Positions 12,303 through 28,016 of a stretch of DNA of 38,358 nucleotides are shown in pieces (the stretch's first letter is position 1; each line of letters opens with the position of its first letter). The position numbers and the translations under genes are program-made. The stretch is from the NCBI GenBank assembly GCA_003166335.1, contig PMWA01000021.1:1-38358 (forward strand). The letters run 5' to 3'. The notes below the pieces were generated by a model that did not search any database, was not told the DNA's origin, and saw nothing but the letters and a program-made list of their open reading frames with translations. This DNA is from Methanobacterium sp. GTDB taxonomy: Archaea; Methanobacteriota; Methanobacteria; Methanobacteriales; Methanobacteriaceae.

Positions 12303-13280
12303 TTGGTAGAAAATCATCATCTGAAACCAGCCACTACTGAAGAACGGCGCATATATTACAGGGAGGAATGGAATGTAGAGGAAATCCCGGATTTCATAAA
12401 GAATTCATTGGATAAAAGAGAATTCGGATTTGATCATTTAGGTCGTGGACCTAATGATCGTTATCGGGTATTCGGGTCTTTAGATTTGTTAAGGAAATTT
12501 TTAAGATACCGTACACCATTCGCTGCTTATTCTTCTGTGGCTTTTTATGAGAAACCTCGCCGAAGGGATGGTTGGATTAAATCGGAGTTAGTGTTTGATG
12601 TAGATGCTAAGGATATTCCTTTAAGAAAATGCAACTGTAAGGGTGTATGTGAAGTATGTTTAAATCAGGCACAGGAGATCGTCTGTAGTTTAATGGATAT
12701 ATTGGAAGGGGATTTGGGTCTTAATGATATTCATGTAATTTATTCAGGGAGAGGTTACCATCTGCGTGTGCTTGATGAATCGGTGATGAAGATGAGTAGT
12801 GAAGTAAGAGGGCAGATTGTTAAATATATTATCGGGGCGGAAGTTCCTCAAAGTGAATATGCAGGTGATGGTATGACTTATAAATTGGAACACTTCTCCT
12901 TGCCCTTTGGATATCCACAAGTATTCACAGAGAGAGTTAAATATGCTATTCTTCATATAACTGAATCCACAGAAATTGATGGAGTTAATAATAAATTATT
13001 AAAAGATGTTATTAAATACTGTAAATATATAAATGATGATGAATGGGGACTTTTTAGGGGAAAAGTGGGCCCCATCAGATATCAGAGATTAATTAAGGGT
13101 ATAGCTTCTTTAAATATGGGATGGGTGGATGCCAAAGTTTCCATAGACCTTAAAAGAATTTTACGTCTTCCATCTTCCCTGCATTCCATGGTTAGCATGA
13201 AGTGCATGGAAGTGAATAACCTGGAGAATTTTGATCCATTCCGTGATGCAGTTCCCCGTTTTGTTTATGAAAGAAAATAA
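12303..13280 (+). CDS. priS: DNA primase small (catalytic) subunit
   Basis: REFGF, ELVFDVD, zinc knuckle CNC..VCEVC, YSGRGYH, RILRLPSSLH; TTG start. Confidence 0.96.
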   Translation: MVENHHLKPATTEERRIYYREEWNVEEIPDFIKNSLDKREFGFDHLGRGPNDRYRVFGSLDLLRKFLRYRTPFAAYSSVAFYEKPRRRDGWIKSELVFDVDAKDIPLRKCNCKGVCEVCLNQAQEIVCSLMDILEGDLGLNDIHVIYSGRGYHLRVLDESVMKMSSEVRGQIVKYIIGAEVPQSEYAGDGMTYKLEHFSLPFGYPQVFTERVKYAILHITESTEIDGVNNKLLKDVIKYCKYINDDEWGLFRGKVGPIRYQRLIKGIASLNMGWVDAKVSIDLKRILRLPSSLHSMVSMKCMEVNNLENFDPFRDAVPRFVYERK

Positions 13281-13737
13281 TTTAATAAAAACTATTTAAA
13301 AAAATTCCTAATAATAGCTTTTCTGAGATTTTACTTTAATTATGTGATACTATCCGATTTTTTTTGAATAAAATATAATTGCTTATTTTTGGTGTTAATA
13401 GGCGTTAAAGAATCTTCAAATAAGTTTCCATAAATCCGTTCTGTATCCATACTGTTTGATGTTTAATACTAAATTATTTCTATCATAAATTTCATATTAA
13501 TAGTACAAATCGTATATAAATGTAAGTTGTCTTGATATAACAACATCTATTAAGACTAAATTAACTCGAAAACTCATAAAAAACCTCAAGTTAAACGGAA
13601 ATAATGTTTTAAAGTTATTATTTTGAAGGGATTATAAAAAACGAAAATAAATCCCATAAATAATTGTGAAAAAATATAATTCTCGATAAAAAAGAATCTT
13701 TTCTAAGAAAATTTTAAATCTAAAATAAAAGTTTGAG

Positions 13738-15348
13738 GTGAGTAAAATCAATGCACATGACGGTGAAGGTTATGAAGTCGTTTTAACCGCTGACAGAACA
13801 CTTATGAGTCATTATAATGGCTTAGTATTCCTAGGTTTTAGTGCCTGTGTACCTAAAGGATTGATACCAGATATAATGTATTTTTCGATGCTCTGTCCAT
13901 CCATCGAATCCAATAATGATGGATCAGTTAAATATGCCCCCTGTGGAACAAGGAAAATTGAAGCTGCACTGTTAAATAAGGGCTTCAAAAGGGAAGACGT
14001 TATTGTAGCACATCCTGAACATTTAGATAAAGTAATTGGTCCAAACACTAAAGTATTGGCGATAAGTGGATTTGATCCTCTTGGAATTGCACCTGCCACT
14101 TCAACATTTACACAGCTCCTTGGAGGCAATAATAATTACATGTCAGTGAAGTTTGAAGAATTATTAAATCATCCTGCAGTACAACATTATCAGCCGAAAA
14201 TTATTGTAGGTGGGCCTGGAGCCTGGCAGCTAGAAGATGATGAACCTCGAAATAGACTAGGATTAGATTGTGTAGTTATTGGTGAAGGGGAAAAAGTGGT
14301 GGATACCCTCTTTAAGAAAGCAATAAATGGAGAAGAAATTCCAAATATTGTCCATGGAGAAGTACTTGAAGAGGAAGAGATACCTAGTATTAAAGAGCCA
14401 ACTATAGAAGGAATTGTTGAGATCGCTCGCGGATGCGGTCGTGGCTGTGCATTTTGCGTTACAACACTCCAGCGCTATCGTTGTTTGCCAATTGAACATA
14501 TATTAGAAGAAGTAGAAGTTAACCTCAGGGCTGGAAAACAACCAATACTTCACGCAGAAGATGTACTCAGATACAAGGCTAAAGGTTTCAATGTTAACAA
14601 AGAAGCTGTAACTGACTTATTCAGGCAAGTACATGATTATCCTGGCGTTGAAGCAGTGGCTATGAGTCATTTCGCGTTATCATCCGTTGCCAGCGCCTCT
14701 GAAGTAGTTGAGGAAGTTTCAAACATTCTCGGAGCCAATAAAAATGAATGGTTAACCGGTCAAACAGGAATAGAAACTGGCAGTCCAAAGTTGATTAATG
14801 ATGGTATGAAAGGTAAATGCAAGCCTTTCAAACCTGAGGATTGGCCAGAAGTTGTGGTTAATGCATTCCAGATTTTATCTGATAATAATTGGGTACCGAT
14901 TGCAACATTAATTATTGGACTTCCAGGTGAGGATGAAAACGATGTACAATTGACTATAGATTTGATTAGTGAATTAACTGATTTTAAGAGTATTATTATT
15001 CCACTTTTCTTTGTCTCGGAAGGTAGATTAGAGGGATTAAAGTCATTTTCAGTAGAGGAGATGACACATAAACAATGTGAACTTATGTTAAGGTGTTGGG
15101 AACATAGTCAGAACTGGACAGAAACTTTACTCGATGAATATTTTCATATGACTAATGTTAATTCTATTAGTACGTTCGGTGCGAAGCGAGTGTTTACTTA
15201 TGCTCTTGGAAAATCTAGGAAGCTAGTGAAAATGTGTGAAGATGATTATGGGTATGATATACAAAAAATGCTCCAAGATGCTAGAAATGGTGAGATTACC
15301 ATGATACCTAAACCGTTACAAGTCATCTATAATCATTTCGTACAATAA
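13738..15348 (+). CDS. B12-binding-domain radical SAM protein, Grs/Gms (GDGT lipid modifying)-like family
   Basis: CxxxCxxC (RGCGRGCAFC), IIVGGPGAWQ, VVIGEGE, GIETGS, IIGLPGE; N-terminal VLTADR...LGFSACVP...AP.G.RKIEAAL signature; GTG start. Confidence 0.8.
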   Translation: MSKINAHDGEGYEVVLTADRTLMSHYNGLVFLGFSACVPKGLIPDIMYFSMLCPSIESNNDGSVKYAPCGTRKIEAALLNKGFKREDVIVAHPEHLDKVIGPNTKVLAISGFDPLGIAPATSTFTQLLGGNNNYMSVKFEELLNHPAVQHYQPKIIVGGPGAWQLEDDEPRNRLGLDCVVIGEGEKVVDTLFKKAINGEEIPNIVHGEVLEEEEIPSIKEPTIEGIVEIARGCGRGCAFCVTTLQRYRCLPIEHILEEVEVNLRAGKQPILHAEDVLRYKAKGFNVNKEAVTDLFRQVHDYPGVEAVAMSHFALSSVASASEVVEEVSNILGANKNEWLTGQTGIETGSPKLINDGMKGKCKPFKPEDWPEVVVNAFQILSDNNWVPIATLIIGLPGEDENDVQLTIDLISELTDFKSIIIPLFFVSEGRLEGLKSFSVEEMTHKQCELMLRCWEHSQNWTETLLDEYFHMTNVNSISTFGAKRVFTYALGKSRKLVKMCEDDYGYDIQKMLQDARNGEITMIPKPLQVIYNHFVQ

Positions 15349-15560
15349 AGAAAACTTGATAGAGAATTCTTTTGGTGATTAGTCTATTATAGAACTGATT
15401 TATTATTTCAATAATGCATTAAAAAATTAAAATGTAAACAAAGAGAAATGTGACAAATTATCTTTATTTGAAATAGTGCCCAAAAAAAGGGTTGAAAGAA
15501 CAAAGTCCAGTTTATATCTATTAAAAATTTAAATAATTTTATATCATTTAAAGACGGTAT

Positions 15561-16943
15561 TTATCTCCATAAAATCTCGCTTTTATTTAAATAAGTGTGT
15601 AAAAATGTTAATACAAGATTATTATATTTATTGGATTCTAAAAGTTCCATTAAATCAGTTAATTTATGTTCTTTTAAAATTTCATTTTTTACATGTTTTC
15701 CAAATCTAAGGTAACCGATTTTTATATCTGTTAAGGAAACTTCTAGAAGAGATTCCACTTCAGGATATTCTCTTTCCACTGCTGCAACCCATCTATCGCC
15801 TTCAATCCACGCTTTATCTTTATATTTCTTTAAATATTTTTCTTGATCATCTTTAAACCATAATTGGGGTCCATAATGTTTTTTAATCTTAGGAAGTTTC
15901 CAGATGCTGAATTCTAAAAGTATAATGACTAATTTTTTCTCATCACTCCATGAATCACTGCCAAAAATTTTAAATCCCTTTCTTTCCATCAAATTAACTA
16001 TTGACTTTTCAGTTTTTCTAATCTGAGGATATAATGCATCAATAGGTACATCAGGAGTTTTGAATGATAATAGTAAAGTTTTGGTACCTCTTTTAGTGAA
16101 TTCCTTTTTTATACTATTTAAATGAGCTGTTACATCTTTAAAATAAAAATATAATGTGGATGGTTTTTTAAGATAATTTCGCGAGGCTGCTACAAACTCT
16201 GACATTTTCTGCAGGCTTACAGCTGCGGCTACGTTTCTGTTTTTATCTACGGGATCAATTACTACTAATGGTTCGTTGAATAATGGAGAATTATCATATT
16301 CAATTAGATCTATATGATATCCGGGTTTCCATTCAGTAGAAGCGGATTCTAAAACTTGTTCAAAAGAATTATAATGTAGGATTAAGAGTTCACAGAGGTA
16401 ACCAGCGAAGCCTCCTACCTTGAATTCTGATCCATAGGTTCCAATGGATTTCATGAATTGTTTGAGTAATATTACTTCATCGGCTTGTTGGTGATTTAAA
16501 TTTTTTTTAACGTATTTAGTATGGGGTATGGTTCGATCTACCGCTGATTTAAGTTCTTTGGGATGTTTTATATTATAGCAGGGTACAAAATCAATTTCAT
16601 GACCATCTATAAGTCCTGTAATATAAGGATGAGATGCATAACGACATTCATATTTTCCATTCATTTTCTTTATACATTTATACCCTAAATGTAAGCCTTT
16701 TTCTTTAAGATAATCCGGAGAAGTGTTTAAAGGAAATTTTATGAATAAATCAATATCAGCTTTTCCAAGCCAAGTATTTTTAGCAACAGAACCCACTAAT
16801 ACTGTTTCTGCATTTATATTTTCATCTATTGTAATTTGATTTATTATACTAATTAATTTGTTTGATAGAGACTTCACCTTATTTATTTCACTTTTTGAAG
16901 GCTTTATTTCCTCTAAAATCTTTTTATAATCTATTTTAGTCAC
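15561..16943 (-). CDS. cca: CCA-adding enzyme, archaeal class I
   Basis: VGSVAKNTWL..ADIDLF, YASHPY, SAVDRTIPH, GGFAGYLCELL, DPVDKNRNVAAA. Confidence 0.96.
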   Translation of the reverse strand: MTKIDYKKILEEIKPSKSEINKVKSLSNKLISIINQITIDENINAETVLVGSVAKNTWLGKADIDLFIKFPLNTSPDYLKEKGLHLGYKCIKKMNGKYECRYASHPYITGLIDGHEIDFVPCYNIKHPKELKSAVDRTIPHTKYVKKNLNHQQADEVILLKQFMKSIGTYGSEFKVGGFAGYLCELLILHYNSFEQVLESASTEWKPGYHIDLIEYDNSPLFNEPLVVIDPVDKNRNVAAAVSLQKMSEFVAASRNYLKKPSTLYFYFKDVTAHLNSIKKEFTKRGTKTLLLSFKTPDVPIDALYPQIRKTEKSIVNLMERKGFKIFGSDSWSDEKKLVIILLEFSIWKLPKIKKHYGPQLWFKDDQEKYLKKYKDKAWIEGDRWVAAVEREYPEVESLLEVSLTDIKIGYLRFGKHVKNEILKEHKLTDLMELLESNKYNNLVLTFLHTYLNKSEILWR

Positions 16944-17641: not shown

Positions 17642-18584
17642 TCACCTTTTTCCTAATTCTATTATCCTACTAAGACTTTCAGCGGGTTTTTCTATAGTAT
17701 TCAAAACATGTACATTTACTCTGGAGAATAAATCTAAGAAAAACTTTTTTCTAAGGTTAAACTTTCTTTCATCCCTAACAAGTTGGTGAGGATTACAGAA
17801 ATCCTTTTCTACATTGAAATTCAATGCTTCATCAACATTTAAATCTCTAAATACAGGATTATCAGGATTCCTCTCTAATAATACCACACTTTTTAGAGTT
17901 GAACTTTCCCTTACTCGTTCCTTGAATAAAGTGTTTACATCTGCGATTCCCCTGCTGTGAGGATCGAGTTTAACTTGCTTCAATATCAAAGAAAAAACTC
18001 TTCCAAACATTTTCAATATCATCTCGAATGTATGAATTTTTTTCTGATGAATACACAACCACTCTATTATCAAATAGCCGGGTGAAAAACCAGTCATCGG
18101 AGATGTAATTAAATTCATCATCTTGTAACAATCCATAAGTTAATGTTGTTTTACCAGTTCCTGGAGGTCCAATAATAGCCATTCCATGACCAGAACAATC
18201 CACAACTGATCCATGGACTGAATATCTTCTATGAACGGAATGATATTCCTCAAAAAAATCTGAAATAGCAGCCAAGGCAATGCTCTTAATCCAACCATAA
18301 TAATCAGTATTTTTAATAATACAAGTCTTAGAGATGGGTTCATACATTACACTAAGATTACCGCCGTCTTCAATAGAGAATACTTTAGCGTGAGGTCGTA
18401 TATCTTCACTCATAAATTTAAAATTATCTTCCCATTCTTCTTTAAACTCATGGTTATCCGTTAATAATTTGACGCAGGCTCCATGAATATTAGCTTTTCT
18501 TTCAAATTTAACTTTAGCTACAACTTCCTGGAATAGATCATCTTTCATTTGAGGAGTTATCAATTCTACTTCATAGCCATCCAT
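17642..18584 (-). pseudogene. HPr-kinase/PEPCK-like P-loop kinase split by a single frameshift (real lesion or assembly error)
   Basis: ORF 17970..18584 carries HGSVV...IIGPPGTGKTT...ISDDW and continues in the +1 frame of ORF 17642..18136. Removing one base from the A6 run at 17992-17997 gives a continuous 313-aa protein. Confidence 0.8.
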
Positions 18585-26636: not shown

Positions 26637-28016
26637 ATGCATGGTTTAAGAAGAATGGTTTGTTTAGTGGATGGGGAACATTACATCCCCGTAACAAAAG
26701 CAGCATTAGACACCTTAGATAGTCTCGAACATAACGAAGTAGTAGCTGTTATATTTATAGGTGGCACCGAAAAATTAAGAGAAACATCAGATAAAGCAAT
26801 TCAAGAAAAACTGGGAAGACCCGTTCATTTCGGCGCGGATCATCATAAAATACCCTACGATCTCATTGGAGAAATTATTGAACAATATAATGCAGAAGTA
26901 GTTATGGATTTAAGCGATGAACCTATCGTTGACTATTCTAAAAGATTTAAAATAGCAACCATAATCCTAGAGCAAGGAATAAATTATGAAGGACCAGATT
27001 TTAAATTTTATCCCATATCCGAACATGATGTTCTTCAAAAACCATCACTTAAAATACTGGGTACAGGTAAACGTATAGGCAAAACTGCAGTATCAGCTTA
27101 TGCTGCAAGAATAATCAATCAAAAACAATACAACCCCTGCATCGTAGCCATGGGACGAGGAGGTCCAGAGGAACCAGAAATTGTTAGAGGAGACCAAATA
27201 GAACTTACCCCTGAATATTTAATGGAGCAATCAAATAAAGGGATCCACGCTGCATCAGACCATTGGGAAGATGCACTCATGAGCAGAATATTAACCATCG
27301 GCTGTAGAAGATGTGGTGGCGGTATGGTGGGGGATGTTTTCATAACTAACATGAAAAAGGGAGCTCAACTAGCCAATGAAGTTGAAGCGGGTTTCGTGAT
27401 TATAGAAGGAAGTGGTGCAGCAATTCCCCCTATAAAAACAGATAAACACATCGTATTAGTAGGTGCAAACCAACCGTTGATAAATATAGAAAAATTCTTC
27501 GGTCCATTCAGAATAAAAATGGCAGATTTAGTGATAATAACCATGTGTGAAATGCCTATGGCTAGTCCAGAGAAAATAGAAAGCATAGAAAAATTCATTA
27601 AGATCATTAACCCTAAAGCAAAGGTTATTTCCACTGTTTTCAGACCAAAACCACTTAGCTCAATTAAAAATAAGAAGGTTCTTTTCGCAACCACTGCACC
27701 AGATTCTATTAAAACTGTTTTAACTGAATATTTAGAGGAAAAATATAGTTGTAAAGTGGTTGGGACCACTTCACACCTTTCTAATAGACCATTACTACAA
27801 AAGGATATAGAAAAACATATTGGTCAGGCTGAAGTGATGCTTACAGAATTAAAGGCAGCAGCAGTTGATGTAGCCACCAAAGATGCATTGGAAGCAGGAT
27901 TAGAGGTGGTGTACTGTGATAATATACCCAAGGTCATTCAAGGAACTTATCCAAAACTTTCCGATGCTATAATTAAAGTTGTAGATGAAGCTATATCTGA
28001 CTTTAATAAAAGGTGA
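26637..28016 (+). CDS. cpgS: Cyclic 2,3-diphosphoglycerate synthetase
   Basis: [64 protein letters not shown]. Confidence 0.95.

Follow-up and report, generated by a model that had tools for sequence, protein, structure and literature searches.

A probable acquired ring synthase of the Grs family between priS and cca in a peat Methanobacterium

The locus and its insertion site

In the window, that is, the whole stretch of DNA analysed here (38,358 nucleotides), a radical SAM gene separates priS from cca, with the following features.

12303..13280, plus strand: priS, left flank, above the TIGR00335 cut-off
13283..15560, no strand: accessory insert separating priS from cca; the site is empty in relatives
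13361..13447, minus strand: stretch that may be left over from a decayed TrmB-family regulator gene, a weak match to the TrmB of genome G016
13738..15348, plus strand: 536-aa radical SAM gene of the Grs (GDGT ring synthase-like) family, GTG start
13774..14352, plus strand: N-terminal Rossmann-type domain, approximately residues 13-205, predicted to bind cobalamin (AlphaFold model, Foldseek)
14434..14457, plus strand: CxxxCxxC radical SAM cluster motif (C233, C237, C240), invariant in alignment A1
15163..15249, plus strand: basic, amphipathic C-terminal helix (476-504) that may anchor the protein to the membrane (model)
15561..16943, minus strand: cca, right flank, convergent, above the TIGR03671 cut-off

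No gene lies between the Grs-like ORF and priS, nor between the ORF and cca. With both flanks above cut-off, the preliminary description of a lone ORF between priS and a convergent cca is borne out. The GTG start is common to 7/7 same-genus orthologues examined, and the members of the 90% cluster of the window protein are named Methanobacterium sp. The gene is single-copy in its assembly (G000; 2.49 Mb, 126 contigs, 99.4% complete).

Among 16 same-genus genomes with priS, the next gene is cca in seven, the Grs-like gene in seven and another gene in two. Both alleles occur in peat run X16: a contig of an approximately 96% identical relative (record 10) joins position 13282 to 15561, which is the empty site, and other contigs of the run match the Grs-like gene exactly. 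A functional tie to priS or cca was rejected because the site is empty or otherwise occupied in 9/16 same-genus genomes, and because other Methanobacteriaceae copies occupy different loci. The gene that fills the gap in G007 and G009 (L248:603-1406 and L252:2565-3356) is a different one of approximately 265 aa without a Pfam family, and a homologue of it lies on contig C68 of G000; its presence there suggests that the site is prone to insertion.

G016 has a TrmB-family gene between priS and its Grs-like gene, and the possible remnant at 13361..13447 weakly matches this same-site TrmB, with 47% identity across 30 aa and an E value of 0.003 from a small search. In G008 (contig C22, L032:6773-7616), a frameshifted and truncated second tes, 64-73% identical to the Tes of G000, lies directly upstream of the orthologue; a TrmB-like fragment also precedes the orthologue, and the whole cassette is inverted relative to G000. 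The arrangements in G016, G008 and G000 suggest a putative original cassette of regulator, tes and grs.

Elsewhere in the window, two overlapping ORFs of 204 and 164 aa with a weak HPr kinase-like match lie at 17642-18584 on the minus strand. Their counterpart in G016 is a single 313-aa ORF, 90% identical across the first part, and the split is probably a frameshift or an assembly error. A 459-aa ORF without a Pfam family occupies 26637-28013 on the plus strand, with a putative ATP-dependent zinc protease gene next downstream.

Family membership and predicted fold

We compared the window protein by BLASTP with GrsA (33.2% identity over 473 aa, E about 2e-87), GrsB (31.9% over 461 aa, E 2e-84) and TK0167 (37.8% over 466 aa, E 2e-95). 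These three are 29.8-32.1% identical among themselves, and the window protein is equally close to them. The two Grs proteins of G898, a genome that we take to be Archaeoglobus profundus in view of its two-copy, gmm-adjacent pattern, match at 44% and 43%. The GrsA (Saci_1585, Q4J8I0) and GrsB (Saci_0240, Q4JC22) references come from a Sulfolobaceae genome and have the database cluster names Q4J8I0_SULAC and Q4JC22_SULAC; each contains 5/5 test peptides of a proteome table (PMC12107092), and they were told apart by genome position and the locus numbers given in PMC13459092. L301, which is BAD84356.1 of T. kodakarensis KOD1 and its single Grs match, was taken as TK0167 by position.

Published work defines Grs homologues by BLASTP to GrsA and GrsB at E <= 1e-40, at least 70% coverage and at least 20% identity (bioRxiv 2022.08.15.504015), and the window protein lies within these limits with about 460/536 residues aligned. 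A profile of five ring-synthase references recovers it at 499 bits (E 1.7e-150), the next G000 ORF scoring 43.5 bits, and a profile of five methylase-type proteins gives it 34.5 bits. In tblastn searches of G000 with GrsA and GrsB, the window gene is the sole strong match. The protein keeps 58/61 invariant positions of the five references in one alignment and 57/61 in a second, in which 108 family members have a median of 55 and four methylase outgroups keep 25-28; members throughout the family retain about as many, so the figure does not separate ring synthases from members with other chemistry. The altered core residues are the Tyr of APY-G (C69), a Ser (T121) and a Pro (S427).

The N-terminal motifs that the preliminary description listed are indeed those of the Grs family, and all ten strings tested were found, in order: VVLTADRT at residue 14, LGFSACVP at 32, LIP at 42, DG....AP.G.RKIEAAL at 61, V.V.HPEHLDK.I at 88, TKV..IS..DPLG..P at 104, LLGG at 127 and KIIVGGPGAWQ at 154, with the cluster motif CGRGCAFC at 233. 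The GF on the same list is two letters long and uninformative. GrsA and the window protein share the N-terminal motifs LxADR, APxGxRKxEAxL and GGPxxWQ, as well as the domain order, the CxxxCxxC motif, the lack of a SPASM domain and a basic C-terminal helix. Unlike GrsA, the window protein has Cys for the Tyr of APYG and about 30-40 more conserved C-terminal residues, and it lies on a separate, well-supported branch.

Pfam assigns only Radical_SAM to the window protein (E 2.4e-7), and NCBIfam returns B12/radical SAM models below cut-off only, TIGR04013 being the best. An AlphaFold model from a 15-row alignment (pLDDT 87.4, pTM 0.88) folds into a Rossmann-type N-terminal domain with strands at 14-18, 88-91, 106-110, 154-158 and 178-181, a partial TIM barrel and long C-terminal helices, a fold also described for GrsA and GrsB in PMC13459092. 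Foldseek matches the model to MgmA (9CCB, E 7e-16), MiaB/RimO, TsrM, CysS, OxsB and TokK. A sequence search of the PDB returned no solved Grs structure, the best match being 9CCB (E 2.8e-11). Of the B12-binding plus CxxxCxxC architecture claimed earlier, the cluster motif stands at 233-240; the B12 domain is missed by Pfam, as it is in GrsA and GrsB, and is supported through the predicted fold and the below-cut-off NCBIfam matches. The predicted combination of a Rossmann domain, a CxxxCxxC barrel and a C-terminal helix, with no auxiliary cluster domain, is that of Grs proteins. The best 18-mer of the C-terminal helix (481-498) has a hydrophobic moment of 0.53 and a net charge of +6, compared with 0.72 and +7 in GrsA and 0.57 and +4 in GrsB, and, following PMC11186832, it is a candidate membrane anchor.

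The preliminary description had placed the gene in a single Grs/Gms family and titled it a cross-linking enzyme. These are two unrelated groups: Gms is a SPASM/Twitch enzyme related to AhbD, with a COG4001 N-terminal extension and two auxiliary clusters, and Grs and Gmm belong to the radical SAM proteins that bind B12, according to PMC11214058 and PMC11186832. Comparison of the window protein with three Gms-like proteins of Methanobacteria reveals no similarity (E 0.56 or worse), and Pfam finds in the window protein no SPASM domain, which is present in the Gms-like protein of G017; the title of cross-linking enzyme is therefore unsupported. A profile of the three Gms-like proteins does not return the window protein at E < 1e-3 and finds the G000 ORF C59:13324 at E 3e-103. 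Gms and the window protein share only the radical SAM type and, as predicted for the latter, action on GDGT; a product lighter by 2 Da would be common to both. A bridge synthase (Gms) making GMGT is practically excluded by BLASTP and profile together. The window protein is a Grs-family radical SAM protein and not Gms, as judged from its sequence.

Gmm, Cgm, Pgm and the desaturase Ted resemble the window protein in their broad B12/radical SAM architecture and in the class of substrate, and its top Foldseek matches include cobalamin-dependent methylases. A chain methylase of the Gmm/Cgm/Pgm type is nevertheless very improbable. Identity to Cgm and a Gmm-like protein is 21.8-24.2% (E about 1e-6), short of the level of about E <= 1e-60 used for Gmm/Cgm membership in PMC11214058 and bioRxiv 2025.10.20.683597. 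Both of those proteins match the Pfam B12-binding family, which the window protein, GrsA and GrsB do not, and G000 already has three Gmm-like genes that score 434-823 bits on the methylase profile, to which one of them belonged. The E value and the 34.5 bits on that profile rule out a Gmm/Cgm identity. The Cgm reference is the single Gmm-like match in the Sulfolobaceae genome used for GrsA and GrsB; for Gms and Gmm, the references are encoded by neighbouring genes in Methanobacteria and were assigned from their context and domains, and are not the characterised Thermococcus proteins. A mark of Ted is overlap of its gene with an AttH-like hgs gene; a scan of 41 neighbours and references, drawn in part from 387 neighbour ORFs, found no AttH-type family.

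Phylogeny, origin and distribution

Four trees were built: one of 222 rows with FastTree, one of 115 rows, picked out of 302 with an identity filter of 66% and with four outgroups added, and two of 49 hand-picked rows, a quick one and a careful one with a mixture model. To our knowledge they contain no bacterial Grs-like sequence; distant and bacterial homologues are incompletely sampled, and Halobacteriota beyond Archaeoglobaceae entered only through a 251-genome cross-domain sample. In all four, the Methanobacteriaceae copies make up a single clade (100/100). This clade joins the Bathyarchaeia-named P0046, P0106 and P0077 and a Thermoproteota locus (97/91), in a surrounding group that includes proteins named Methanomassiliicoccales, Hadesarchaea and Nitrososphaerota.

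The window protein belongs to a 31-row branch (98/99) without GrsA, GrsB, TK0167 or the A. profundus-like pair, whose function is assigned by correlation only. It falls outside both GrsA branches, that of S. acidocaldarius and that of TK0167, and outside the GrsB branch, which is long and separate. TK0167, with GrsA activity in T. kodakarensis (bioRxiv 2025.10.20.683597), is the closest relative with genetic evidence and groups with the Methanothermus-type Grs of Methanobacteria, apart from the window protein. As an alternative, the preliminary description had allowed for an uncharacterised paralogue, which is fair, since the branch holds no characterised enzyme. Midpoint rooting nests the 31-row branch among the characterised enzymes; rooting with methylase outgroups puts the root on the side of this branch, with a long-branch warning, and we are unsure of the root.

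In AU tests (28 rows, LG+G4), a single clade of all Methanobacteria Grs was rejected (p 1.7e-7), as was a clade of the seven Bathyarchaeia-named rows without Methanobacteriaceae (p 2.6e-4). The groups were named after inspection of earlier trees and the second test is also sensitive to the placement of Methanomassiliicoccales, so that acquisition of the Methanobacteriaceae Grs by transfer from Bathyarchaeia is likely and we put it no higher. Horizontal transfer within the grs family has been noted before (bioRxiv 2022.08.15.504015). A recent transfer has no compositional sign: gene GC is 38.0% against 35.3 +/- 4.4%, and GC3 is 27.1% against 26.8%, for 851 long ORFs.

Grs matches occur in 22/294 other Methanobacteriota genomes at least 80% complete. 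Nineteen are among 279 Methanobacteriaceae genomes, in three genera (7/15, 3/24 and 9/22), and the remaining three are distant matches of the TK0167 type (38-40%). Within the genus, 7/18 genomes have the Grs-like gene. Four same-genus genomes carry an intact second copy (62-63%), and another, G002, a broken one. Cultured M. bryantii carries a copy, WP_069584888.1, that is 66.5% identical to the window protein. Some Grs match is found in 271/301 Thermoproteota genomes, with a best match of 54% or more in only 16, and a match above 50% identity over full length in 1/251 Thermoplasmata genomes. Against the 7/7 orthologues, dN/dS is 0.09-0.13, indicating purifying selection, and on this comparative evidence the window gene is old, maintained and accessory.

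The broken paralogue of G002 (G002:C2:433178-434550) is interrupted by stops and frameshifts and adjoins TMEM175-like genes, which likewise flank the intact second copies in G017, G005, G012 and G004. In G476, the gene next downstream of a copy 66% identical to the window protein is gmm-like. Neighbours resembling gms or gmm occur at 2/46 clade-side loci outside Methanobacteria's own Grs, so gene context is mostly uninformative. Several members of the branch from Thermoproteota or metagenomes (L051, L091, L092, L093 and L262) have a PadR-family regulator just upstream or a few genes off, and near another member lies a radical SAM gene with an intein and a LAGLIDADG domain (L099:8689-11397). 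Four genomes of one archaeal genus (G682, G704, G724 and G743), each 1.3-1.4 Mb in size, carry three to four divergent paralogues of Grs.

A different reading, possible though rather doubtful, is that the branch acts on the same lipids with changed chemistry: a ring of other position or size, a desaturation, or a methylation, including one of the glycerol backbone that would lead to butanetriol tetraethers (BDGT). The branch, which contains no characterised enzyme, has 13 specific invariant residues, C500 and Y504 among them, none of which occurs in the five references, and its conserved C-terminal part is longer than theirs. A second Grs in several Thermoproteota carriers (G470, G394, G351, G542 and G584) would allow a division of labour. 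Methanomassiliicoccus is among the BDGT producers. Bathyarchaeia and Methanomassiliicoccales are both named in the branch, and Bathyarchaeia include BDGT producers (PMC12694404). The sister Gmm family offers a precedent: Cgm, Pgm and Ted are described as Gmm homologues, and Ted is a desaturase at 31% identity within that family (bioRxiv 2025.10.20.683597), which indicates that divergence at such a level can change chemistry. In Ca. Bathyarchaeota B1_G15 a grs gene adjoins ted. Against changed chemistry, the tight branch does not track Thermoplasmata (the 1/251 above), a set in which M. luminyensis was not recognised, and the known methylating and desaturating enzymes are Gmm-like, where the window protein scores 34.5 bits as against 499. 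Tentatively, the Bathyarchaeia-Methanobacterium-Methanomassiliicoccales branch could be a distinct lipid-tailoring class, with a new ring type or position or as the missing butanetriol-backbone methylase, which moved by transfer into peat methanogens in the form of a regulated tes-grs cassette; M. bryantii would then be its cultured host.

Lipid genes, predicted ring formation and environment

Tetraether synthase, which the preliminary description had proposed to look for, is present in G000 (Tes, C100:19853-21343, E 4.5e-169 to PDB 7TOL). A gms fragment of 183 aa at C59:13324-13872 (minus strand) is cut at the contig end and 93% identical to the whole gms of G017. It lies directly upstream of a gmm-like gene (C59:11832-13265, minus strand), in the same arrangement as in G017; the N-terminal part of gms was not found in assembly G000. 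Two more Gmm-like genes lie at C76:166-1611 and C81:12758-14107, and the count matches the 2-3 Gmm homologues reported for Methanomada in PMC11214058. A gms match is found in 13/18 other same-genus genomes and in 5/5 other Grs carriers checked. With tes and a separate gms-gmm pair, the gene content makes it likely that the organism produces bridged GMGTs. The earlier suggestion of bridged lipids thus probably holds for the organism, through the gms on C59, and fails for the window gene. In the Methanobacteriaceae genome G101, two full-length Gms-like genes (G101:C1:1933415-1934935 and 2481768-2483219) are present beside a Grs-like gene.

We consider the window gene to be an acquired cyclopentane-ring (GDGT ring) synthase with a probability of about 0.65. 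Every Grs member with a tested function in the literature examined is a cyclopentane ring synthase, the window protein keeps the invariant core, the enzyme that would make its substrate is present, and some relatives abut gmm or tes; we favour the ring-synthase reading for these reasons. Tes, and likely Gms, would supply tetraether lipids, in whose biphytanyl chains the Grs-family protein would close cyclopentane rings. In the scheme proposed for Grs enzymes in PMC13459092, the protein would dock at the membrane through its C-terminal helix, and its single [4Fe-4S] cluster would make two successive 5'-deoxyadenosyl radicals; the first lipid radical would be parked on cobalamin, or as an olefin, before a methyl carbon is joined to a chain carbon.

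The tree gives no reading of ring position. C-7 (GrsA-like), formed on ring-free GDGT-0 or GMGT-0, appears likelier than C-3, because the assembly has no second Grs and GrsB is described as poor on GDGT-0 (PMC13459092). GrsB needs a pre-ringed substrate, according to the same account, and no such substrate could come from a single Grs; with ring-free lipid as its necessary starting point, a Grs on its own would behave like GrsA. The host is a moderate-temperature anaerobe, unlike the GrsA host S. acidocaldarius, and ring formation here is a predicted function whose likely role would be membrane tightening under acid or other stress.

We found no report in the literature of ringed GDGT in a Methanobacterium culture, and for M. 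bryantii the supplement rows of PMC7137397 list only diether and tetraether. Together with the patchy, accessory nature of the gene (7/18 same-genus genomes) and the broken second copy in G002, this would suit an enzyme whose substrate is a different isoprenoid (archaeol, a polyprenol or an apolar one), or one so nearly silent that no useful ringed tetraethers result. We regard this as unlikely. Purifying selection is strong, the gene is maintained in three Methanobacteriaceae genera with two copies in four genomes, and in G008 it once adjoins a tes copy. A. profundus, moreover, is reported to make ringed GDGT/GMGT, with rings nearly absent at 70 C but more frequent at 85 C (PMC11214058), a temperature dependence by which a lack of ring reports under standard growth says little.

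Ringed and bridged tetraethers serve as environmental (climate) markers. GMGTs, including ringed and methylated forms, are reported from environments including peat in PMC11214058, which names Bathyarchaeota and Methanomicrobia as the main gms carriers there. If the ring-synthase reading is true, GDGT-1 to -4, as well as GMGTs bearing rings or methyl groups, have a candidate source in a peat Methanobacterium that combines tes, gms, gmm and grs. Peat ring signals would then be partly set by which strains carry the accessory gene. Moderate-temperature methanogens could then make ringed lipids; a survey of 76 archaellum-bearing genomes reported Grs mainly in thermophiles and as absent in mesophiles (PMC12107092). 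Since Bathyarchaeia are difficult to grow, the copy in M. bryantii provides a culturable proxy for a large Grs branch without a characterised enzyme.

A full-text literature search, with most subscription papers outside its reach, found no paper on the Methanobacterium Grs or its branch. Garcia et al. class many homologues as GrsA, GrsB or unclassified, and the name Methanobacterium is absent from the five spreadsheets of that work (bioRxiv 2023.10.20.563219); sequences of the branch may already stand on published Grs trees, such as those in its supplement. The gene is a new member of a known family, in a branch without a characterised enzyme, and was likely transferred into moderate-temperature methanogens.

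The stretch is present at 0.98 or more of its words in 14 DNA runs, 13 from peat and one from permafrost, all flagged as possible sources. Six peat RNA runs contain it at 0.33-0.85 of words, and contigs of the RNA libraries span the Grs-like gene in 4/4 runs examined, which were selected by matching this stretch. In X15 and X16 the RNA contigs also span the intergenic stretch upstream of the gene, so DNA carry-over is possible there. In X17 the contigs cover the gene and leave out 12660-13739, which hints weakly at transcription.
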